Virus record (IMG/VR): IMGVR_UViG_2049941000_000719
Origin: an uncultured virus (IMG/VR IMGVR_UViG_2049941000_000719)
Lineage: Duplodnaviria > Heunggongvirae > Uroviricota > Caudoviricetes
Direction: 5' to 3' (one strand)
DNA length: 49,604 bases
Shown here: positions 14,966 through 35,052 of the stretch, in pieces
Numbering within the stretch: position 1 is the stretch's first letter
Layout of the letters: each line of letters starts with the position of its first letter
Notes under the pieces: model-generated
Databases searched by the model: none
Told to the model about the DNA's origin: nothing
What the model saw: only the letters and a program-made list of their open reading frames with translations
Translations under genes and position numbers: made by a program

Positions 14966-15352
14966 TTACCTCCTCTTATTGCGTCCGGGCATTTTGTTAA
15001 TTGCCAACATCGGTGCACCCACAATACCCAAAGTCCTGAATAATGTAGCAGGTGCATATTTTAATACTCCGAGATCATTCATACGAAGAAGTTCAAAACC
15101 GTCAGGGTTGAAATTTATAGCCGGTATGATGTTTTTTACCTGCTTTATAGGAGGCATTCTTGAATCCAACTCCAAATTCCAAACGGTTAACAGGAAAATA
15201 TCTCCGTCAATGATAACATATCTTAATCTGTTATCCATAAAGACAAATTTCCACGGAGAGGAGAACCAAAAATCTCCCCCTTTTGATACGGTAATTACAT
15301 CCCATACTCCGTAAGAGTTCTTTGCTTTTTTCGACACAATTCGTGTTGCCAT
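14966..15352 (-). CDS. Family C protein
   Basis: MATRIVSKK; paralog of 12975. Confidence 0.8.
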   Translation of the reverse strand: MATRIVSKKAKNSYGVWDVITVSKGGDFWFSSPWKFVFMDNRLRYVIIDGDIFLLTVWNLELDSRMPPIKQVKNIIPAINFNPDGFELLRMNDLGVLKYAPATLFRTLGIVGAPMLAINKMPGRNKRR

Positions 15353-15393
15353 GATTTCCCCCAAATATGAGTTTGAATAATATATTACTCAAT

Positions 15394-15424
15394 AGGGAAT
15401 ACATAAAAATACATTACAATTTTT
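15394..15424 (-). promoter_or_regulatory. TTGTAATGTA-TATA promoter heading the basic-protein array
   Basis: Minus strand AAAAATTGTAATGTATTTTTATGTATTCCCT. Confidence 0.7.
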
Positions 15425-15728
15425 GGTATTAAGTTTTAAAAGGAGAACACGGGGTGTTATTTTACNNNNNNNNNNCCCGTGTTCGGATGTAACAAACAGT
15501 TTCGATTTGTGAGATATTATGGGTGAATTCGACTTTTTTGGTGATCAATGCCTTAAGTAAAAGGTTTGGATGAATGGATGCATAGATATGAACGACAACC
15601 AATACANNNNNNNNNNNNNNNNNNNNNNNNNNNNNNNNNNNNNNNNNNNNNNNNNNNNNNNNNNNNNNNNNNNNNNNNNNNNNNNNNNNNNNNNNNNNNN
15701 NNNNNNNNNNNNNNNNNNNNNNNNACTA

Positions 15729-15908
15729 TCAATCGGGGACACTTTGCAGATATCCCAATATCAGAGAGCCTGCCCCGACGATGACCAAGGTGACAATAAC
15801 TCCGTGCGCCACCGCGGTACCTGCAACCCACAGAGAATATATCAGCCCGAAATATCCGACAATCAATAGAACAATGAATAATTCCAATGCGGTATCAAAA
15901 ATATCCAT
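15729..15908 (-). CDS. Small two-TM membrane protein (59 aa)
   Basis: Read manually: MDIFDTALELFIVLLIVGYFGLIYSLWVAG.. Confidence 0.55.
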   Translation of the reverse strand: MDIFDTALELFIVLLIVGYFGLIYSLWVAGTAVAHGVIVTLVIVGAGSLILGYLQSVPD

Positions 15909-16007
15909 ACGAAACCTCTATTCAGCAAATACCCCGCAAAAACCGCATAATCACAACGGCAATACCCNNNNNNNNNNTTGCCGCAACCGTCTCCTCAGAC
16001 ATCGCTG

Positions 16008-16196
16008 TCATGAACCAATCACCTTACCCTTCAGAAAACCGCTTTCCCGTATCTCCTCGACGGGCATGTTAATGTATTCCCATAACTCCTCATTACTCCA
16101 GAATGTAGTCTCAATGTAATGAAGGATGTTGCCGATGACCTCATTTGTGAGTTCAGAGCCTTCCTCGTCCTGAAGACGATACGCAATGATTTTCAT
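16008..16196 (-). CDS. Small acidic hypothetical protein
   Basis: MKIIAYRLQDEEG with AGGAGA RBS, downstream of promoter copy 16257-16276. Confidence 0.65.
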   Translation of the reverse strand: MKIIAYRLQDEEGSELTNEVIGNILHYIETTFWSNEELWEYINMPVEEIRESGFLKGKVIGS

Positions 16197-16256
16197 AATC
16201 TCTCCTTTCGGAGTTTTTTCACTGATTCTGTCTGACATGACAGATATTTTAGACGG

Positions 16257-16276
16257 CATCCTTTTTAAGTAAAACG
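16257..16276 (-). promoter_or_regulatory. Conserved promoter CGTTTTACTTAAAAAGGAT
   Basis: Copies also at 16979-16998, 17227-17246, 17424-17442, 17738-17756, 35034-35052; TATA-like TTAAAAA core. Confidence 0.7.
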
Positions 16277-16325
16277 CAGAGCACAAAATAAAATAAAGAA
16301 TCACAAACTAAAAAACACATAATAG

Positions 16326-16509
16326 GAGATGTCTTCCCATGAAAGGAAAGACACATAGTAATTATAAAACACTCCGTAAAGAGCATCCTATATATCCCCA
16401 TGAAATGGGGAACAGTGTAACCGAACATCATTCGATATGACGTTGAACTAACCAATCAGTTCTGTTCAAAATCCAAATGCCGGTTCATCCCCATGAACAT
16501 GGGGAACAC
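16326..16509 (-). CRISPR. Orphan degenerate type I-E-like mini-array (3 repeats; 65- and 33-nt spacers)
   Basis: Minus strand GTGTTCCCCATGTTCATGGGGATGAACCG (16509-16481), CTGTTCCCCATTTCATGGGGATATATAG (16415-16388), GTGTCTTTCCTTTCATGGGAAGACAT (from 16354); first resembles the E. coli I-E repeat; all keep a hairpin. Confidence 0.7.
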
Positions 16510-16521
16510 AGGAGTATGTGT

Positions 16522-16573
16522 ACAATACATCCTCGCGAGCTTTATTGATGTGACATTATCGGGGATGTATTGT
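16522..16573 (-). ncRNA. Stem-closed RNA unit 0
   Basis: ACAATACATCC/GGATGTATTGT inverted repeat, 24-nt loop, TTAAATAAA upstream; directly precedes the mini-array. Confidence 0.45.
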
Positions 16574-16649
16574 CTGTATAAACATATGACACTCATAGTA
16601 TTTATTTAATTCGCGGCAAAAATAGAAAAATCAGAAAAACTGCCGTCAA

Positions 16650-16698
16650 AAAAAACAGATTCTTTAACCGAGGTTGGTTGTTAAAGAGTCTGCTTTTT
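16650..16698 (-). terminator. Hairpin followed by T-run
   Basis: cagattctttaac / gttaaagagtctg imperfect inverted repeat flanked by A/T runs. Confidence 0.45.
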
Positions 16699-16835
16699 CC
16701 CTTTTTGTAAATCATTAGGGGTTATTCACCCCATGCATGACACATTATGGATGTAGAGTGCGCGGAAACGTGTGTTTCAAGGTACTTTTCGGTTTAGAGT
16801 GTGTATCCAGACGATTAATTCTATATGTGATGAGC

Positions 16836-16960
16836 ATCAATACACGCCCGATTTTGAGTCATAATCATCGAGTTCATTAGAGGATCTATTAGATTTAGAT
16901 GTTTAGGAGGATCTATTAGATTTAGATGTTCTGTCTGTAACTCTCTCGGAGTGTATTGAT
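16836..16960 (-). ncRNA. Stem-closed RNA unit 1
   Basis: ATCAATACAC/GTGTATTGAT 10-bp stem (extendable), promoter 16979-16998; loop has a 24-bp direct repeat. Confidence 0.6.
16880..16930. repeat. 24-bp direct repeat x2
   Basis: gaggatctattagatttagatgtt at 16880-16903 and 16907-16930. Confidence 0.9.
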
Positions 16961-17123
16961 TACACACATATACAACTTCATCCTTTTTAAGTAAAACGAT
17001 AATATCACCTCAAACCGGTAAAATCCATGAGATGCATCCCCCGAATACATGTGATTTTCCAAGAAAATATATGATCGGCGCGGCAGACAAACCCGGCAAA
17101 AATCAACTGCGGGAAAATTGAGA

Positions 17124-17209
17124 AATCAATACAATCAGTAGGTAAAAATCTCGTTTATCGATAGGGAGGTGTTAAACAATGCTTTCATCCAATGGCGATT
17201 GTATTGATT
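17124..17209 (-). ncRNA. Stem-closed RNA unit 2
   Basis: Perfect 13-bp AATCAATACAATC stem, 60-nt loop, promoter 17227-17246. Confidence 0.65.
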
Positions 17210-17299
17210 ACACAGTTATACAACTTCATCCTTTTTAAGTAATACGCTGAAAAACCCCGAAACCACGATATCAAATAAATTATCTTCAGAATGAGATGC

Positions 17300-17405
17300 A
17301 ATCAATACGGCAGATCTATAAATGAACAGCATGTAAAGAATTTGTGACTAAACTAACACAACACCAAGAACGGAAATATCTTGATATTTGACTGCCGTAT
17401 TGATT
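17300..17405 (-). ncRNA. Stem-closed RNA unit 3
   Basis: Perfect 14-bp AATCAATACGGCAG stem, 78-nt loop, promoter 17424-17442. Confidence 0.65.
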
Positions 17406-17466
17406 ACACATCTATATGCGCTGATCCTTTTTAAGTAACACGCAAAATAGGTAACTTTCCGAAAGA

Positions 17467-17542
17467 TAGCGGAGAGCGGATTTGAACCGCTGATACTCCG
17501 GATCATGAGTCCGACGGGTTGACCTAACTACCCCACCCCGCT
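17467..17542 (-). tRNA. tRNA-Met(CAT), archaeal initiator type
   Basis: Cloverleaf: AGCGGGG/CTCCGCT acceptor (A1:U72), GGGT/ACCC D-stem, TCGGA-CTCATGA-TCCGG, AGCGG-TTCAAAT-CCGCT, A73. Confidence 0.9.
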
Positions 17543-17597
17543 TTTTCGTATGAATCCCCCCGATATCCCGTGCACACTACATGCACATATAGGAAGT

Positions 17598-17626
17598 CAG
17601 TTTATCCCCATGTACACGGAATATGC
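17598..17626 (-). repeat. Solitary degenerate I-E-like CRISPR repeat
   Basis: Minus strand ATATTCCGTGTACATGGGGATAAACTG; ends in ATAAACTG handle-like octamer. Confidence 0.5.
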
Positions 17627-17629
17627 GGG

Positions 17630-17719
17630 AATCAATACACCCGATGTAAGAGATTTATCATGAATTTAATCCAGATGACAAGAAACCTATGTAATTGGCG
17701 CAGATCGTGTGTATTGATT
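17630..17719 (-). ncRNA. Stem-closed RNA unit 4
   Basis: 16-bp stem with one mismatch, 58-nt loop, promoter 17738-17756. Confidence 0.65.
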
Positions 17720-17779
17720 ACCCATATATACAACTTTATCCTTTTTAAGTAAAACGGAAAACAGCACCAAATTATAGAT

Positions 17780-17855
17780 ACGCGGAGAGCGGATTTGAAC
17801 CGCTGAATCTCGGATTTTGAGTCCGATGGATTGAACCTGACTTTCCCACTCCGCC
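17780..17855 (-). tRNA. Atypical tRNA, anticodon CAA, paralog of the tRNA-Met
   Basis: Identical T-arm, TCGGA-CTCAAAA-TCCGA anticodon arm, 5-nt variable loop, G1:G72 mismatch, U73. Confidence 0.75.
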
Positions 17856-17981
17856 ATGACAATCTGAATACTACTCCGAATTCCCCAATAACTGTATTTT
17901 CGGATAAATCATCATTGTAGGGATACTGAATTAATTATCGCTAATATGCTAATTAACCGGGTGATGATTATCCGGGTTGCA

Positions 17982-18009
17982 CAGTTTATAGGTGATCTGT
18001 GGGGAATTC
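17982..18009 (-). repeat. Highly degenerate solitary I-E-like repeat
   Basis: Minus strand GAATTCCCCACAGATCACCTATAAACTG; both ends kept, hairpin lost. Confidence 0.35.
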
Positions 18010-18046
18010 AGGGTAATACTAATGAAAATAATCCCATCCTCTTTCA

Positions 18047-18133
18047 ACCAATACAGCAGATTTTGTAATTACTTTTTAGGGGTATATTGTAGGTAAATTC
18101 TAAAAAGCGAAATTAACAACCCGCCGTATTGAT
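18047..18133 (-). ncRNA. Stem-closed RNA unit 5
   Basis: 13-bp stem fully paired only on minus strand (three G-U pairs), 61-nt loop; promoter position is in an N gap followed by AACGC. Confidence 0.6.
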
Positions 18134-18230
18134 CATANNNNNNNNNNAACGCTTGTGTACCTTCGCAGATTGACGATGCCGACGGCAAAATATATCCTTT
18201 ATCGACACTCATCACCTTTTACGGAATAAC

Positions 18231-18512
18231 ATGAACTCACAAACAGAGATATCAGAAAAATCCCCGATAGAGGAGGTGCCGACATACATAAACCTGATAC
18301 GCGGCATCAACCGCCTGAACTTCACGATTACATCCCGGACGGATGCCGCCAAGGACGGAAACGAATTAACCGCCGATGAACTCAGTCAAATTGCACATGA
18401 CATATGCACGCTCTCGGACAAGCTCACCGCGGCACGCAGTCAGGACATTATCTCGATTAATCAAACAATAACTCTCGACNNNNNNNNNNCAGTATTAAAT
18501 AATCTTATTTAA
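18231..18512 (+). CDS. Hypothetical protein (gap at 3' end)
   Basis: First ORF of the plus-strand block. Confidence 0.5.
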   Translation: MNSQTEISEKSPIEEVPTYINLIRGINRLNFTITSRTDAAKDGNELTADELSQIAHDICTLSDKLTAARSQDIISINQTITLDXXXXVLNNLI

Positions 18513-18577: not shown

Positions 18578-18784
18578 ATGTCAATCAAAATGAATCAGGA
18601 AGTATATGCGCATATCCACTCATTGGAAGGAAAGAAGGACAGAGTTACACTTCTTGAAAAGATAGAAGACCCGAAACAGCCGTATTACATCGTCGACTAC
18701 AACGGCAAAAAATGCACGGCAATATTCAATCCTTTTGTGTGGGAATACTATGCGGATGACCTTTACGGAGTTATCGAAGAATAA
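18578..18784 (+). CDS. Small virus-type hypothetical protein
   Basis: AGGAG RBS; CTAIFNPF..YYADDLYG. Confidence 0.7.
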   Translation: MSIKMNQEVYAHIHSLEGKKDRVTLLEKIEDPKQPYYIVDYNGKKCTAIFNPFVWEYYADDLYGVIEE

Positions 18785-24821: not shown

Positions 24822-25885
24822 GACAATTTGTTATATCCTGTGCAAATTAATCTATTAAGTCCGAGATTATGAAAATTTTTGATGAAATACCGCGTAAAAT
24901 TAGAACTATAAGGATTATCGCAATTACAATACACCGTCTTATCTTTAAAATACTTTGAATAATGTGATAATTCTTTTACAATATCGTTGTATTGTGTATA
25001 AAACTCATCATCTTTATTTTTTTGCGCGACAATTAAATTTGAATTATTTGCCATATCTCTCACCTAAAAAAGTATGATATATTTATTCAATCAGNNNNNN
25101 NNNNGATTTAAAATCACCATTGCCTAAAAGATATTTGGTATTTACCTCAATAAACTCATTCAATTTTATCTCAGATATATAAAAGACATCGATAGGAACC
25201 AATTTTCTTACTACATCGAGTATATAACCANNNNNNNNNNAATTTACACAAAGGAACAATCTTTCCAGAATCTATATTCAAAGAAGTAATCCATCGTGCA
25301 TTACCAAATTTCTTAAGAGTTTGTTCGGGGGGGGGCGAACAAAAGATATGCTTTTGATATTTGAATAATTACTTATTTTGACCTGTCCAGTTGATATATA
25401 TGGCAACACAACAGGATAACCCAAATGAATTATTAATGTAATAAGTATCAATTCCTTATTATACTTCATTAGTAATTCAAAATAATCAATAAATTTGGAA
25501 AAAGGAGGGTTTGTTACTACTATATCCGATTCTTTCAAATATGAANNNNNNNNNNCACCCAATTTGAGAGATTTGTCTGCACATCCGTGTTCAAATTATT
25601 TACCTGATAATCCTCCCAGTTCATGACACTGTTTTGAGAATTTTGAGAGATGCCATCGGCATTCCCGGCACCGCGACGGCGGATTAATAATCTTGCAAAA
25701 ATATTCTTATTTTTTATACACAAATCCGTTCGTAAAAAATCAATTATTTCAAATAAATCTGGATTATGATAATCAAGATAGGACATAGGAACTCCGATTA
25801 TACCATTATAATCAGGAATTTCACTTAAACGATTTACATTGATTATATCTGGATATCCATCATATGATTGATACTTATTTATGAG
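24822..25885 (-). CDS. EcoRI-family adenine DNA methyltransferase, in four out-of-order blocks with a C9 frameshift
   Basis: KDDEFYTQ..VYCNCDNP..SNF (24822-25054); LLGNGDFKS (25105-25230); DIVVTNPPFS (25241-25545); YDGYPDIINVN..GVPMSYLD..ARLLIRR (about 25670-25885). Confidence 0.8.
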
Positions 25886-25895
25886 NNNNNNNNNN

Positions 25896-26884
25896 TTCAG
25901 AATCGGGGGTTGATTAGGGATTCTTTCAAAGTTTAAGACCCCGAATTCTATGTTTTGTTCTTCAATCACTGCCTGCCCTACGTCATCCAATGACCGCAAA
26001 AGCCGGAGTTGTACCATGGAATTCTTGGGGAGAGACCCCGGAAACCAAATTCGGATTGGTAAACGCTCTTTTACACGGTAATCCAAAAGATTATCGTCAT
26101 GTGTGCTCCCGAAGACCGAAATATTATTTTTACGGAAGTGAATCATCGATTTCGCGAAATTACCCGTCAAATGGAACAATTTACCTGCCGGATAGGAGGG
26201 GGTCACCGTGTGCAGTTCATCCAGAATGATTGTCACATGCCGCCCTTGGGTCTCCTCAAGGAGAGTGTTGCAGAACTCGAACCACCAACTCGGAGGAGGG
26301 GCAAGAACTCCTTCACTCGGAACATCCTTGAGACACTGTAATTCCTGCTGAGCAAGCGTTTTCAGGATGCTTTCGCCCAAGTAGTATTCCGACGGTTCGT
26401 AAACCACATTTATACCCCCGATACGCATATGTTCCATAAGGTCGACAGGGGATTTGTAATGTTTTATCGTTAAATCATGGTTGATTTTTCTTTTTTTACC
26501 GAGAGAGACCTCCGTAAAAGTATAGTCGTCATTTTCATGTACATGAACCATGAGGGGCTTAGACCGCCCGTATTTGGGGAAAGACTTCTTCCAATTTTTG
26601 GGAATAAGGCAATTCCAGTGGTCATCACTCATTCCGCGGAGAATAACGGTCTCCGGGTCGGTATCTATCGATTTGAGAGCGTCCTTATCAAATTTTCGGA
26701 GATCGTGTTTTGAAACTCCGTAGGGGAGAGACCGGGTAAACTGCGCGCACTGCATAAGCAATGTAGATTTGCCGTGACCGAAAGCCCCTATAAGGTCGCA
26801 GAATGTCCCGCCCGTGCCGCAGATACCGTCATCATGTATGAGAAGATTTTCCCACAATTTCTGAGCGTGACGCGGATCAATCAT
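25896..26884 (-). CDS. P-loop ATPase, possibly FtsK/HerA-superfamily packaging or assembly type
   Basis: Walker A GAFGHGKST, Walker B VTIILDE, FRKNNISVFGSTH; C-terminus at gap. Confidence 0.75.
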
Positions 26885-28120: not shown

Positions 28121-28966
28121 ATGGATATTATTACAATTTTGTATCTGATATCGAGTGTCATTGTATTACTGAACCTGACCTTTGCCGCATATCTGGATAT
28201 CAAATATCGTCGGGTGCCGTTTCAGGCATGGTACCCGATGCTGATATTCTGCACCCCGCTTTCAGGGTTGTTTTATGCACAATCCATACTCACAAATTCG
28301 TATTTTGTAGTATATATCGGGCTTGTGATTATGTTTTGCGCGGCATTCTATATAATTTCGCGATACATGAAGACCCTTGGGGGCGCGGATGCATGGGCTT
28401 TGATATTTGTTACCTTATTTGTCCCGATTTTACCCCCCGCAACATTGGTTCCCGTTGCCACATCTTCGACAATAACCNNNNNNNNNNTTTTCCCGATTGC
28501 CGTAATTGTCTGCTTTGTAATTGCCGTGTGCGCTGTTCCGGCAGGTCTGTTGATACAGAACCTTATCAAGGGAGAAAAAGCCCCGTTACTCTACCTTCTG
28601 ACATGTCAGCACATCTCCGCCGAGGACATCCCCAACAAAATCGGATTCATCATGGAGAATATCACAGTTTCCGATGCTGAAGAGGGGGAGAGGGGCTGTG
28701 AGTCCGCAGATAAGAGAGAGGGGGATAGAGGGGGATACACACACACATATCTTAAGACCGCGGATTTTATAAAGAGAATTTTGAAAAAAGACCTCAAATA
28801 TCACACAAAATATCTCATAAACCATATAGAGGTTTATGAGGAAAAGATGACAAATTATTCAAAAGCCGGGGAAATTTGGATAACATACACCATACCGCTG
28901 ATACTGCCGATGACGGCAGGTTATGTAATGGCATATATTGCCGGATATATCCTGTTATTTAACTGA
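28121..28966 (+). CDS. Archaeal A24 prepilin/prearchaellin peptidase (FlaK/PibD-like)
   Basis: AYLDIKYRRVP (first Asp), GGAD (GxGD-type), multiple TMs, C-terminal IWITYTIPLILPMTAG. Confidence 0.9.
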   Translation: MDIITILYLISSVIVLLNLTFAAYLDIKYRRVPFQAWYPMLIFCTPLSGLFYAQSILTNSYFVVYIGLVIMFCAAFYIISRYMKTLGGADAWALIFVTLFVPILPPATLVPVATSSTITXXXXFPIAVIVCFVIAVCAVPAGLLIQNLIKGEKAPLLYLLTCQHISAEDIPNKIGFIMENITVSDAEEGERGCESADKREGDRGGYTHTYLKTADFIKRILKKDLKYHTKYLINHIEVYEEKMTNYSKAGEIWITYTIPLILPMTAGYVMAYIAGYILLFN

Positions 28967-29810: not shown

Positions 29811-30772
29811 TTATATAAGTTTTGCCTGTTGACTCATCGGATTTTCAAAATCCAGAACAGGTTCCTGTACATGCCGTAATTTTGGGGAATACTCTTCAAA
29901 AGGTATTTTCCAATACAACCATCGGCGATTTGCATAATTTGCAAGACGCCGTGTTTGCGGTGTGCTTTTGTATTGCATTACAAAAACATTGGTGTTCAAT
30001 TCCCGCAAAAGGTTCACGCGGTATATATCCTCATCAAAGGTTGAATTAAAGCCTGTCAGAACATAAAATATTACTTTTTTCCGAGTGTTGATGCCGGCAT
30101 TCTTCAGGAGATCCAAGCCTGCCGTAACTTTTGATTCATCCCGGATGTTGTCAAACGCAAAGTGGAGATCTCCCGTCCATCTGAGCTTACCGAGACGTTG
30201 CGCGATCTCCTCATCCAGAATGCGAATATCCATCCCTTGGATGGCATTGAATGCAAGATTATGTTCCAGAACGTAATCCGNNNNNNNNNNTAATCCGTGT
30301 TCTCAAAAAACCATTGTTTGTCGGCATAAACATTGTTGTCCAAAACAATGATCTTTTTGTGTTTTTTATCATGAAACTCGCTGATATGTTGCCATCTGTG
30401 AAAGCGCCCTTCTTTTTTCGGGACAACACAAAACGGACATTTTCGGATGCATCCGCGGGTTGTGTATCCCAAAGAGTAGTCCATTTCGGGATATATGGAA
30501 TAATCCGGGCAAATCTTTTCGTATTCGGGAGGGAGACGTTTATTGATATCTACTCCCGTGCCGCCAAGAGAGACTTGTGCATTCGGATAGAGTGATGCGA
30601 TGCCGCGTGCCTGCTCCGCATTTTTCGTAAATATACAGGACACATACACATAATCGGGATTCTCGACATCAAAACCAACCGTATCGCCCAACAGCTTGTG
30701 ATGTGCGCTTATCTGCATAAGCGCCAAATTCGGGATTTTCGAGTCAATGTTGACAAGCAGAACGCGCGACAT
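29811..30772 (-). CDS. Radical SAM protein (frame split at N gap)
   Basis: TTRGCIRKCPFC CxxxCxxC, LDNN, G.DIR, FAFD, FYVLTGF. Confidence 0.85.
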
Positions 30773-30814: not shown

Positions 30815-31810
30815 TCATGTGTTCACCTCATTACAGAGGATATTTTTGTGCACATGTTCGGCTACGGCTTTCATCATCAACGGAGGTACGGCATTTCCCA
30901 CACACCGCCATTCATTTACAAATCCTCCCGACAGCCTGAAATCGTCGGGGAAAGAGGATAGTCGTTTAATCTCCGCGATTGTCATAAACCGAGGCTCTTC
31001 CCAATGAAACATACCTGCCTCGCCATGAATCATGATTTTTGCTTTGACAGTCGGGGAAGGGTTATCGGGATTTATTTTAATGCTGTTAAACCATTGTCTT
31101 TTCGGGTGATATTCATTAAAATACACTCCCAGTTTACAACGATTCCAAATATCGAGACATAATTCGTTATCTATAAAGTATTTTTCACCGTCGGGAACCC
31201 CTTTCAATGCATCACGGACGGTAATCACATTGTACAGGTTTGGTGCGGGATGTGTATTTGTTAAGGGTAAATTGCCGATTATATCATTTCGTATGCCGAC
31301 GAAAATCATCCTGTTTCGTGATTGCGGCACACCGTAATATTTTGCATTAAGTTGTTTTTCAAAGACAGAATAACCCAACTTTCGTAATTCCGTATGGATT
31401 TTGTAAAATATGGGTTTCATTGCCCCGTTTCGCATACCGGGAACATTCTCCATAATGAAACATTTCGGCGAAATACCTTTGAGTATCCGCACGTATTGTA
31501 TATAGAGCTGATTTTTCGGGTTGTCGGGGTTGTGCGCACCGCAGACGGAAAATCCCTGACACGGAGGTGACCCGTCCAGAATATCAAGTTCTCCGGCATC
31601 AAGACCTGCCGCATTCAGAAGGTCTTCGGGTGTGACTTTACATACATCCTGTTTAAAGAGTTCAGTATCGGAGAAGTTATCCGCGTAGTTGTTTGCCGCA
31701 TGTTTCTCTTTCTCGACGGCACAGAGGACGTTGCCGCCCGCCATGTGATATCCGAGTGAGGAACCCCCACACCCGCAGAACAGGCTGATCACGTTAAAAT
31801 CCCCGGTCAT
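30815..31810 (-). CDS. DNA cytosine-5 methyltransferase (orphan)
   Basis: FCGCGG, GSPPCQGFS, ENVPG, QSRNR, GNAVPP. Confidence 0.95.
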   Translation of the reverse strand: MTGDFNVISLFCGCGGSSLGYHMAGGNVLCAVEKEKHAANNYADNFSDTELFKQDVCKVTPEDLLNAAGLDAGELDILDGSPPCQGFSVCGAHNPDNPKNQLYIQYVRILKGISPKCFIMENVPGMRNGAMKPIFYKIHTELRKLGYSVFEKQLNAKYYGVPQSRNRMIFVGIRNDIIGNLPLTNTHPAPNLYNVITVRDALKGVPDGEKYFIDNELCLDIWNRCKLGVYFNEYHPKRQWFNSIKINPDNPSPTVKAKIMIHGEAGMFHWEEPRFMTIAEIKRLSSFPDDFRLSGGFVNEWRCVGNAVPPLMMKAVAEHVHKNILCNEVNT

Positions 31811-32773
31811 GATGCACCTCCGAATGAAAACAGGTTCATATTTAGCCCGACCGCGTATTTCATACGCTCTCGTGATAGCTCGCAATAATCCTCATTGGCA
31901 TCAATACCTATCCAATGCCTGTTAAGTTTTGCCGCCGAAACTGCTGTTGTTCCAGAACCCGAAAAAGGATCTAAAACAATATCCCCTTCATTTGTACCGG
32001 CTAATATGAAGAACTCCGCAAGTGATTCAGGGAAACGCGCGGGGTGAGAGATGCCCCTGTCTCGGCACAATCTGCTGAATGCGTCATTACTCAATGTGTT
32101 TGGTATCGAGAGAACGGAACCGGGGTCTGCACCGCCTTTGTCCGCCCAAGGGTGTGAATAGTCATATGTATGAGAACTCGGATGAATGTTTTTTTTACGT
32201 GTGCCGTGACGTTTCCCGTTTAACAGACGTGACATCCCCCCACAATAGGGTTTTCGGATGGAACCCATATTGAATGTCCATGTATCCCCTTTACTGAACC
32301 AGAAAATAAACTCGTGGGATTTCTTACATCTCCCGTATTTTCCCGTAGAGTATATGTTCGGAGGTGTTGCGGGATTGTGCCAAATATAATCTCTTACGAG
32401 ATTAAAACCTAATTCATGACATAATCTCAGAACTATCTCATAAACATATAATTGAGTTTTACCGTTTACCACACGGTCGTTTATATTCAAGACAAAAGAC
32501 CCTGTGTTTTTCAGAACCCTGTAAAATTCCGCGGCTTTTGGCATGAACCAATCAACATAGCAGTCTGGGGATATTTTTGAGTCAGATATTCCGTAATTTC
32601 TCATATCCGCATACGGAGGAGATGTAAANNNNNNNNNNATCCACACATTCAGCGGGATATCCAGTCAGAACATCTTCGCACTTGCCGTTGATGAAGACAT
32701 TCACCATCTCGGTATTGAACTTGTCGGAAAGCTCTTCGGGAATACCAATCCTGTCTGATAAGATCTCAGTCAT
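31807..32773 (-). CDS. N4-C/N6-A DNA methyltransferase, beta class (split at gap)
   Basis: TSPPY, HPARFP, DPFSGSGTT, GID. Confidence 0.92.
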
Positions 32774-33953
32774 TTTTTACCCCTCGCATTGTCCGAATTA
32801 TCCTGTTTTTGCTGTTCCTGAATAATCTGTAATATTTTTGCGAGGAGTTCAGGATGGATGCTCATTTCGGGATTAATCAGTGTCGGATCCGTGCTTAATC
32901 CGCAATGCGGACAATACTTCTGGTCGGGTGCAACGATGTTGCCGCACCTGATACATTTATGCGGCTTTACCGTATCCATAACACCGTCACGGTCAACGAC
33001 GCCCGCATGATCCAAAACTTCCGAGTCTATATCATTTTCCGAAAGTCTGGTGTATGTCGCCATCATGTGTGTATTGGGATTTCCCCAAGCTATGAGCTTT
33101 ATGATAGATTCATTGTAATTTTCACGCACCATATGTGTTATTCGGGATTTTCGTGACCTTTGCCGCATATCTGGATANNNNNNNNNNGCTTTTTTTGCGA
33201 GTTTCGTAAGAATTTCTATATAGGTTTTATATATGAGAGGGGTTTTTTGTTTTCTGTACAGTGATACAAACACAAAATTATCCCCCGTTGCGGGTGCAAA
33301 TGATTCATATTGATTTCTCCATTCGTTCAGGTATGGTGCCGCGGAAACCAGTCTGCAAAATCTCCTCTTTTTACATTTATGATCGTAAACATAAAGTTTG
33401 GCACCGTATTCGTCGGGGAAAACATCTTTCCATTTCAATGATGCAATCTCGGAAATGCGGCACGCACTTTCATAGAGTGTTGCGATGAATGCTCTGTCAC
33501 GGGAGTTGTTTGCGCACCTGATCATTTCACGGATTTCCGAAGGGGACAGTATTTCGTCCGGGGATGTTGTTTCAAAGTCAATCGGTTGATTTTTAATCAA
33601 TTCGATATCGGCAATATCGCAGTTTATGATTCCCTGTGTGATAAGATATTTCCAGAATGATTTACCTGCCTGTATAAACGCACGAATTGTATTATTTGTA
33701 TATTTGCCTGTTTTGAGATTGGAGATTTTTTGATAGATCTCATTTTTTGTCAGGTCTCGGATACGAACATGCGGTTCGATACTGCATAAGGTGCATATTA
33801 ATGATGTGAGTGTTGATTTACGGCTTTCACCGATATTATTTGTGACTGTCAAATGATTAAGATAATTTCTGATTATCTCTGCATCATCTTCCGTAATATT
33901 GCCGAGTTTCAGGTTTCTGGATAAGCTGACTTCAGGAGTGTATTTGGGATCTT
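32770..33953 (-). CDS. Tyrosine recombinase/integrase with C-terminal Zn ribbon
   Basis: LYESACRISE, RKSRITHM, MMATYTRL, CIRCG..CPHCG; frame extends upstream to the gap (GNITEDDAEIIRNYL). Confidence 0.9.
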
Positions 33954-35033: not shown

Positions 35034-35052
35034 ATCCTTTTTAAGTAAAACG
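35034..35052 (-). promoter_or_regulatory. Copy of the CGTTTTACTTAAAAAGGAT promoter
   Basis: Exact 19-mer upstream of the RHH-recombinase-MTase operon. Confidence 0.7.

Follow-up and report, generated by a model that had tools for sequence, protein, structure and literature searches.

Minus-strand RNA units with pairing ends in a gene-free island of an uncultured virus-like element, likely from a rumen Methanomicrobium

The question addressed here is why one promoter and one pair of complementary ends should recur, copy after copy, around interiors that are unrelated to one another. The locus that raises it is a gene-free region of ~2.5 kb (~15440-18150) in IMG/VR record IMGVR_UViG_2049941000_000719, a stretch of 49,604 nucleotides (nt) assigned to an uncultured virus of the Caudoviricetes and referred to below as the window. 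An earlier reading made from the sequence alone had described six cassettes (16836-16960, 17124-17209, 17300-17405, 17630-17719, 18047-18133 and, more weakly, 16522-16573) and had taken them for individually promoted small RNAs of 85-125 nt with a constant scaffold and variable cargo. All six were found at exactly these positions, and to them is added a seventh, which lies under a run of Ns at 15607-15724 and is revealed by a related sequence and by the end of its 3' arm, legible from 15606. The array is best explained as seven head-to-tail transcription units on the minus strand, which together form an "RNA island" of an uncultured virus-like element from a rumen Methanomicrobium. All features of the array described below are on that strand.

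A closing helix on the promoter strand

A scan of metagenomes with the pattern of the conserved block provided three related loci, L002, L003 and L004, with which the units can be compared. L004 is part of a 75-kb contig, is without N runs and is 92.7% identical to the window over positions 15978-18479, while L002 and L003 overlap and represent one more distant relative, here called B, with three units (B1-B3). In all 10 distinct units (units 1-7 of the window and B1-B3) a 5' arm, (A)AUCAAUAC, pairs with GUAUUGAUU located 24-105 nt downstream, and unit-specific pairs of 2-9 letters extend the pairing into a closing helix of 11-18 base pairs (bp). The pairing first described for each unit is kept, in stems that are longer than had been listed. 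The closing helix is present in both the minimum-free-energy and the centroid fold of 10/10 units, with z-scores of -2.5 to -5.7, and its outer 9 bp are near-invariant across units and relatives. The loops that it encloses do not have a single 7-mer in common, in keeping with the constant ends and mutually unrelated interiors that the sequence-only reading had seen.

Covariation within the helix was tested on a MAFFT alignment of nine units that had not been fitted to the structure. Paired cells make up 93.5% of 124 in this alignment, compared with 32-44% once the 3' partner has been shifted by 1-3 columns; changes on both sides occur in 5/14 pairs, and the observed covariation score was reached by 0/500 shuffles. 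The inner arms also bind their cognate partners better (mean -6.7 kcal/mol vs -3.3 kcal/mol for non-cognate arms), with 9/20000 permutations as good. Individual changes tell the same story: in B1 an A-U pair of the otherwise constant arm has been replaced, with compensation, by G-C, and two positions that in the window are a U-G pair (unit 3) and an A-G mismatch (unit 4) read U-A and C-G in L004. The pairs thus covary among paralogues and relatives, which was one of the checks proposed at the outset. With regard to the strand, there are ~15 wobble pairs, each of which reads G-U on the minus strand, and pairs of the A-C type, the equivalent of G-U on the plus strand, are absent. Such a one-strand bias points to an RNA made from the promoter strand, not to a DNA-level repeat, as had been argued from unit 5, where the minus-strand pairing holds with five G-U pairs and not three. 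Whole-unit folding energy gave no consistent choice of strand across the units.

A covariance model built from nine units recovers every unit, among them unit 6 (39 bits, E 1.3e-5) and, although they were outside the training set, unit 3 (26.9 bits, E 0.0036) and copies in L004, with B2 reaching only 11-14 bits. Elsewhere in the window the model finds nothing at E < 0.1, and in the order of the likely host it is found in 0/151 sampled genomes, with the exact arm pattern in 0/201. Searched against Rfam 15, the window returns only two tRNAs at the gathering score; in E-value mode, applied to 15300-18300 and to L002-L004, the matches to units are at chance level (E 0.019-2.6), far below the gathering score. 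Blastn against phages and plasmids gave no match. In the absence of an Rfam match the folded RNA family of the array appears new, in agreement with the first impression that no recognised family was involved.

More particular relationships were sought in turn. For a tRNA, or a permuted or split tRNA, ARAGORN and Rfam detect nothing beyond the tRNAs at 17467-17542 and 17780-17855, and the T-loop signature GTTCRA occurs in 0/10 units. For an archaeal box C/D small RNA, the C box RUGAUGA occurs in 0/10 units and CUGA in 2/10. A bulge-helix-bulge, whose two 3-nt bulges lie on opposite strands with a 4-bp helix between them, is not found at the helix base, where the closing helices run uninterrupted or are broken by no more than one mismatch or a single 1-nt bulge. 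The closed units were also considered as a CRISPR (short palindromic repeats, clustered and regularly interspaced) array and rejected as such, given that copies of the 46-nt block, which contains the promoter, lie 248, 196 and 314 nt apart. An integron attC origin was set aside because the cassettes are without an open reading frame (ORF), each has its own promoter, the recombinase lies 15 kb off and belongs to the general Phage_integrase family, and the G-U bias is present. A miniature inverted-repeat transposable element (MITE) was rejected too, as there is no target-site duplication beside the arms and the copies are all clustered.

Promoters, transcript layout and RNA contigs

The 19-mer promoter motif occurs six times in the window at <=3 mismatches, where 0.04 are expected (0/100 shuffles). 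Four of the copies are in the array, as originally described, and the other two, at 16258-16276 and 35034-35052, stand ahead of minus-strand protein ORFs. The tally of four promoted units turned out to be too low, in that unit 5 has a promoter as well, hidden under the N run at 18138-18147 and visible in full in L004 and in a contig of a DNA run; that of unit 6 is diverged. The number of Ns in a run is not the true length of what it hides: 10 N at 18138-18147 take the place of ~30 nt in the relatives, and 118 N at 15607-15724 that of ~153 nt in a relative. A repeat search of the window returned a conserved block of 47-68 nt in four copies (at 16949, 17197, 17393 and 17707), together with the inverted-repeat arms of units 2, 3, 4 and 6 (I2, I5, I3 and I12), and the arm motif GTATTGATTAC is present 11 times at <=1 mismatch against 1.39 expected.

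Within this block the promoter lies ~18 nt ahead of the 5' arm, which starts at +38/+39 from the motif start, and an A/T-rich box centred ~26 nt upstream of the arm fits an archaeal promoter. The copy at 16258-16276 serves as a yardstick for the start of transcription: it is followed by the ATG of a 77-amino-acid ORF at +39 from the motif start, an arrangement that is the same in L004, and the mRNA of this ORF looks leaderless. Behind the copy at 35034-35052 the ATG is at +49. With start codons at +39 and +49 behind the same promoter, transcripts of the array would have their first nucleotide at the 5' arm or no more than a few nt from it. In the genome of the likely host the motif shows no enrichment (5 matches vs 6 for a reversed control); among viral contigs the 19-mer gave one chance match, inside a coding region, and the block pattern none, and the promoter-plus-arm pattern gave 0 matches in genome contigs. 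A promoter copy with two changes at L003:1231-1249 (minus strand) points antisense into a neighbouring gene; the letters downstream of it are loosely 5'-arm-like, and no partner arm was seen.

What, then, follows each closed structure? The transcription unit of unit 5 (17758-18147) continues from its closed module (18134-18046) into a second closed element (18018-17869), a tRNA-Leu (CAA, 17855-17780) and a T4 run (17761-17758) directly before the next promoter. That second closed element (L004:3418-3607) has a 19-bp helix with different arms (z -5.9), and in its interior is a 16-nt repeat containing AAUGAUGA, in one copy in the window and three in L004; the AAUGAUGA element at 17869-18018 has a weak match to sR5 (18.2 bits, E 1.3). 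Unit 4 (17444-17756; promoter 17756-17738, closed module 17719-17630) is followed by a partial CRISPR-repeat look-alike at ~17629-17597, a tRNA-Met (CAU, 17542-17467) and a T4 run (17447-17444) before the next promoter. Neither a promoter nor an oligo-T run stands between the closed modules of units 4 and 5 and their tRNAs. The tRNA-Met has only 77% identity to its best match in the genome of the likely host, and it is therefore not a recent copy of that host's gene.

The next two units carry little else. Unit 3 (17250-17442; promoter 17442-17424, 14-18-bp helix 17405-17300, z -5.4) is followed by ~50 nt and a T5 run (17254-17250). Unit 2 (17098-17246; promoter 17246-17228, 14-bp closing helix 17209-17124, z -5.7) has T4 and T5 runs 7 and 22 nt past its 3' arm and, among the units, comes closest to a candidate discrete small RNA. 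Unit 1 (16836-16998; promoter 16998-16980, 5' arm from ~16960, 3' arm 16850-16836, z -3.4) leads into a 140-nt tail and then a T8 and three T5 runs. Its loop contains a 27-nt tandem duplication (16880-16930), of which there are two copies in the window and one in L004 (2410-2509). The tail (16693-16835) is conserved, with one substitution in ~150 nt relative to L004, and ends in a hairpin with a UGAAUAA loop; the oligo-T cluster beyond it (T8, T5, T5, T5; 16618-16655) probably terminates the unit 1 transcript.

Unit 6 (16522-16620) combines an 11-bp helix, ACAAUAC.../...GUAUUGU, with a 30-nt loop (16573-16522), and is followed by three repeat look-alikes and a T6 run before the promoter of the next ORF. 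Its promoter-like block (~16620-16580) is diverged and A/T-rich, and its homologue B1 in L002 has a canonical promoter. Of unit 7 (15440-15724), the N run 15607-15724 covers everything from the promoter through the 5' arm to the loop, and what can be read is the last part of the 3' arm (15606-15597) with a tail up to a hairpin plus T-run (~15440); the unit is complete in L004:1093-953, and L004 719-965 is 90% identical to window 15350-15606. An oligo-T run precedes every next promoter, and it is at these runs that the transcripts would end. The closed domain thus appears to be, in most units, the 5' module of a longer transcript and not a self-contained RNA.

The same plan is seen in relative B with different parts. 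In B1 the promoter is followed by a short closed module, three CRISPR-repeat look-alikes and a tRNA-Met; in B2 by a closed module, a ribosome-binding site and a 110-codon ORF; and in B3 by a closed module and a long tail that ends in a hairpin and T7. B3 (L003:1509-1635) is a mosaic whose 5' arm corresponds to unit 1 and whose 3' arm and tail correspond to unit 7, and indeed the unit 7 3' arm binds the unit 1 5' arm more strongly (-12.6 kcal/mol) than it does its own (-3.9 kcal/mol). The tail motif and terminal hairpin of unit 1 are also common to B3, with the same loop and different stem letters. Judged from this mosaic, units appear to have exchanged parts within the shared block. In a contig of a DNA run the unit 1 promoter (16998) is joined straight to the sequence right of the array (18148), which represents either a variant from which the two tRNAs and units 2-5 are missing or a jump of the assembly at the repeated block.

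RNA contigs are available from three metatranscriptome runs of three rumen studies, among six runs that hold a small share of the stretch. In all three studies contigs span from 16693, 16701 or 16709 to 16898-16932 and hence cover the unit 1 loop, 3' arm and tail, and one of the same runs has a contig at 17877-18096 that crosses the 3' arm of unit 5. Within 1.9 kb, only these parts of units 1 and 5 are covered. On their right-hand side the unit 1 contigs end inside the 27-nt duplication, where assembly breaks; 16693-16932 appears to be an abundant stable RNA. Units 2-4 have no RNA contig in the three runs, which is evidence neither way as the libraries and contigs are ill-suited to RNAs of ~100 nt. 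The expectation of discrete RNAs of 85-125 nt is not supported for most units, where tRNAs, repeat look-alikes or, in B2, an ORF follow the closed module and where contigs run across the 3' arm.

The repeat look-alikes themselves connect the array to a host. The three downstream of unit 6 (16330-16512) start near 16512, 16419 and 16358, with a spacing of 93 and 61 nt, and are read as co-transcribed with that unit. The reference is the repeat of a type I-E array that follows cas6e, cas1 and cas2 in the genome of a goat Methanomicrobium sp. (L012), to which the window copies are identical at 28, 22, 20 and 20 of 29 positions, and those of relative B (L002:534-735) at 24, 25 and 25 of 29, one of the latter keeping its hairpin through a double change. 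A genome scan places the same repeat in arrays of Methanomicrobiales; within the host family it occurs in 1/39 genomes, that of the Methanomicrobium sp. In two cases, unit 4 and B1, look-alikes precede the tRNA-Met. Although the closed units are not a CRISPR array, the hairpins at 16330-16512 do resemble a mini-array, and the look-alikes are candidate RNA anti-CRISPRs or a candidate mini-array. When the spacer-like segments and two host spacers were compared with the window and its relatives, only chance-level matches and no protospacers were found. An inverted match between 16371-16388 and 18754-18771 (16/18) was dismissed as chance.

A shared 5' module and competing explanations

How might such an array work? 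The explanation that we favour, to which a probability of about 0.5 is given, is that the closed domain is a 5' module shared by otherwise unrelated RNAs. One element-specific promoter of archaeal type per unit would fire to give a transcript that opens with (A)AUCAAUAC, and these first letters would then pair with their downstream complement to form the closing helix. The closed module would in this way head tRNAs, repeat look-alikes, conserved tails, an mRNA (in the relative) or, in units 2 and 3, little or nothing. By burying the 5' end the helix may stabilise the transcript, or it may present a common handle to a processing or binding factor, or both. A downstream tRNA or repeat would supply the cut that releases the module, and the transcript would stop at the oligo-T run just ahead of the next promoter. 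Finally, the 46-nt block of promoter plus arm could act as a recombination substrate, so reshuffling units between relatives.

Several points weigh against this explanation or soften its support. A plain 5' stabiliser needs neither loops of 55-98 nt nor a near-invariant outer 9 bp, and protection of the 5' end is without obvious use to the tRNAs because the leader of a tRNA precursor is removed in any case. Shared ancestry accounts for part of the "covariation", and the single best partner is the cognate one in only 4/10 inner arms, a result that arises because several units share few arm classes. The plus strand of unit 1 folds at least as well as the minus strand (-35.7 vs -28.3 kcal/mol). 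From the RNA contigs neither the strand nor the ends can be told, and the RNA libraries may contain carried-over DNA. The relatives, moreover, are few, being three related sequences of which one is 93% identical to the window.

Some features of the proposed module have precedents. Stem-loops at the very 5' end stabilise transcripts, as in the E. coli ompA leader and the 5' stabilisers of B. subtilis and SP82. As in those cases, the helix of the array includes the predicted 5' end of the transcript, comes right after a strong promoter and is independent of the part downstream. It differs in that closure is over 24-105 nt and not a local hairpin, that the outer 9 bp are near-invariant, that the RNAs downstream are mostly non-coding and include tRNAs, and that the host is an archaeon; any stabilising effect here is a prediction. 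Another precedent is found in species 1 and 2 RNAs of phage T4, stable small RNAs that are co-transcribed with the phage tRNA cluster. Like them, the modules are structured RNAs with paired ends within viral tRNA transcripts, from which tRNA processing would free them, whereas a promoter for each unit and a conserved end motif across the family distinguish the array, and there is no sequence or Rfam relation.

In T4-type phages, PeSL (promoter-early stem-loop) cassettes consist of a repeated promoter and stem-loop terminator flanking small ORFs, with exchange between copies (PMC2839356). The likeness is in the many copies of a promoter-plus-structure block within a plastic region, B3 combining units 1 and 7. 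The difference is that the promoter block of the array supplies one arm only, with the other arm beyond a variable non-coding segment; the PeSL stem-loop is a compact terminator beside the promoter, and neither such a compact terminator nor the flanked ORFs are seen here. RNA anti-CRISPRs or solitary repeat units, and mini-CRISPR arrays carried by viruses, are likewise known kinds (PMC10651486, PMC6858448). Compared with these, the hairpins by units 4 and 6 are copies of a host repeat behind a viral promoter, the closed modules are no repeat mimics, and the look-alikes are fused behind a closed module, once, in the window, ahead of a tRNA. In the titles and abstracts of the papers searched no description of such modules was found. 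This array is distinctive in being closed over a long range by ends of constant letters, in carrying cargo that is non-coding and in being fused to tRNAs and to mimics of a CRISPR repeat.

A first competing possibility is that the closed units are finished, independent, trans-acting small RNAs, the helix being a scaffold, the variable interior an antisense, guide, sponge or decoy, and the downstream tRNAs and repeats no more than release signals. For units 2 and 3, where T-runs occur 7-50 nt past the 3' arm, this fits well; the loops are unrelated and differ between relatives, the changes between window and L004 and the shifts in tandem-repeat copies concentrate in some of them, and 3/10 have an unpaired stretch resembling an anti-Shine-Dalgarno sequence (shuffle p ~0.03, for a motif chosen post hoc). 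These CCUCC/CACCUCC stretches, which match the 16S rRNA end over >=6 nt, that is at least 6 nt, are found in unit 1 (16910, 16883), unit 2 (17169) and L003 B3. Yet the loops have no match beyond chance in the likely host genome, where only the tRNA (77% identity) and the repeats were matched, nor in phages or plasmids. In units 1 and 5 the RNA contigs extend beyond the 3' arm, in unit 6 and B1 the loop measures only 30-32 nt, and B2 is a 5' untranslated region. Moreover, the loop of unit 2 is identical between window and L004 and that of unit 3 nearly so, which shows no fast turnover of cargo there. Trans-acting RNAs are consequently held to be a tentative possibility. The modules could instead act in cis, the pairing of the arms being a switch, either an attenuator that responds to a protein or to temperature or a block on the ribosome-binding site, that sets the output of the downstream tRNA, repeat or mRNA. 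Their constant position between promoter and downstream element is as such a leader would require, B2 ends 8-10 nt before a ribosome-binding site that its CCUC stretch could mask, and T5 runs are present inside the loops of units 2 and 5. No conserved alternative structure was found to oppose the helix, however, there is nothing obvious to regulate downstream of units 2 and 3, and an outer helix with pairing upstream of the arm, which looked good in units 1, 3 and 4, had to be dropped as it is not kept in L004 unit 2. Regulation in cis is on this balance rather unlikely.

It could also be asked whether RNA is the right level at all. As DNA, the inverted repeats might be recombinase sites of invertible or attC-like type, the ends of MITEs or the iterons of an origin, to which the promoter is incidental. 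The window does encode a tyrosine recombinase (32770-33852), the block is a long direct repeat, the units look reshuffled in relative B, and the contig joining the unit 1 promoter to the right of the array could be a deletion variant as well as an assembly jump. All of this is outweighed by the ~15 non-Watson-Crick pairs, every one G-U on one strand and none A-C, and the one DNA run examined lists no joint at which the strand changes; the units shared by window and L004 all have the same orientation, the arms have no target-site duplications beside them and the cassettes hold no ORFs. A DNA-level role is for these reasons very improbable. Least credit is given to products of the plus strand, whereby the array would encode small ORFs or antisense RNAs, the block a shared C-terminal peptide and T5 a plus-strand terminator. 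Unit 2 has GGGAGGTG 7 nt before an ATG, from which a 19-codon frame runs into the block, a 47-codon plus-strand frame is present at 16737-16880, and the RNA contigs, giving no strand, would allow for it. Such a start is found in only 1 unit, though, the differences between block copies would all be amino-acid changes, the G-U bias favours the minus strand, and the covariance model, itself trained on the minus strand, scores higher there for all but unit 3.

Returning to the shared 5' module, a bolder and distinctly speculative extension of it can be envisaged, in which the array is an RNA-display platform. Promoter and sequence-specific closing helix, the latter read by a dedicated protein of the virus or the host, would here express and stabilise interchangeable decoy or regulatory RNAs that are swapped between viruses by recombination in the shared block, and the cargo would include the I-E repeat mimics, the anti-Shine-Dalgarno-like loops and the tRNAs.

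The element, its likely host and wider meaning

The window has 40% G+C and is broken up by many N runs, and its source runs in public data are bovine or other animal gut metagenomes. Its ORFs were tested against Pfam (74) and PHROGs (69) and few were recognised. Among these are the tyrosine recombinase, a general Phage_integrase family match encoded 15 kb from the array, and radical-SAM, PAPS-reductase-like and archaeal type IV prepilin peptidase proteins. Three DNA methyltransferase genes (EcoRI-type, C5 and N6/N4) are also present, and the radical-SAM gene is read in two overlapping frames; the methyltransferase, radical-SAM and prepilin peptidase genes are located at 25535-26884, 30815-31885, 31807-32646, 29811-30772 and 28121-28966. 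Neither a capsid nor a terminase was recognised among the window ORFs with Pfam and PHROGs, hence the term virus-like mobile element. A 315-amino-acid ORF of the element had no tblastn match in phages and nothing usable in a protein atlas, and the two proteins flanking the array have no relatives among viral contigs. The repeat mimic ties this otherwise unclassifiable element of 50-75 kb to a host.

To our knowledge very little has been described of the non-coding RNAs of archaeal viruses, and we know of nothing on viruses of Methanomicrobium, a methane producer of the rumen. The locus offers a set of viral RNAs, conserved and apparently expressed, that have one scaffold in common and are joined to tRNAs and to mimics of a host repeat. 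If the array were indeed a display platform, it would be an RNA counterpart of anti-defence gene islands. If the closing helix is a stabilising element or a recognition handle, it would represent a way for archaeal viruses to organise an RNA-based takeover of the host or an RNA-based anti-defence, and it may also provide a small-RNA expression module for methanogens.

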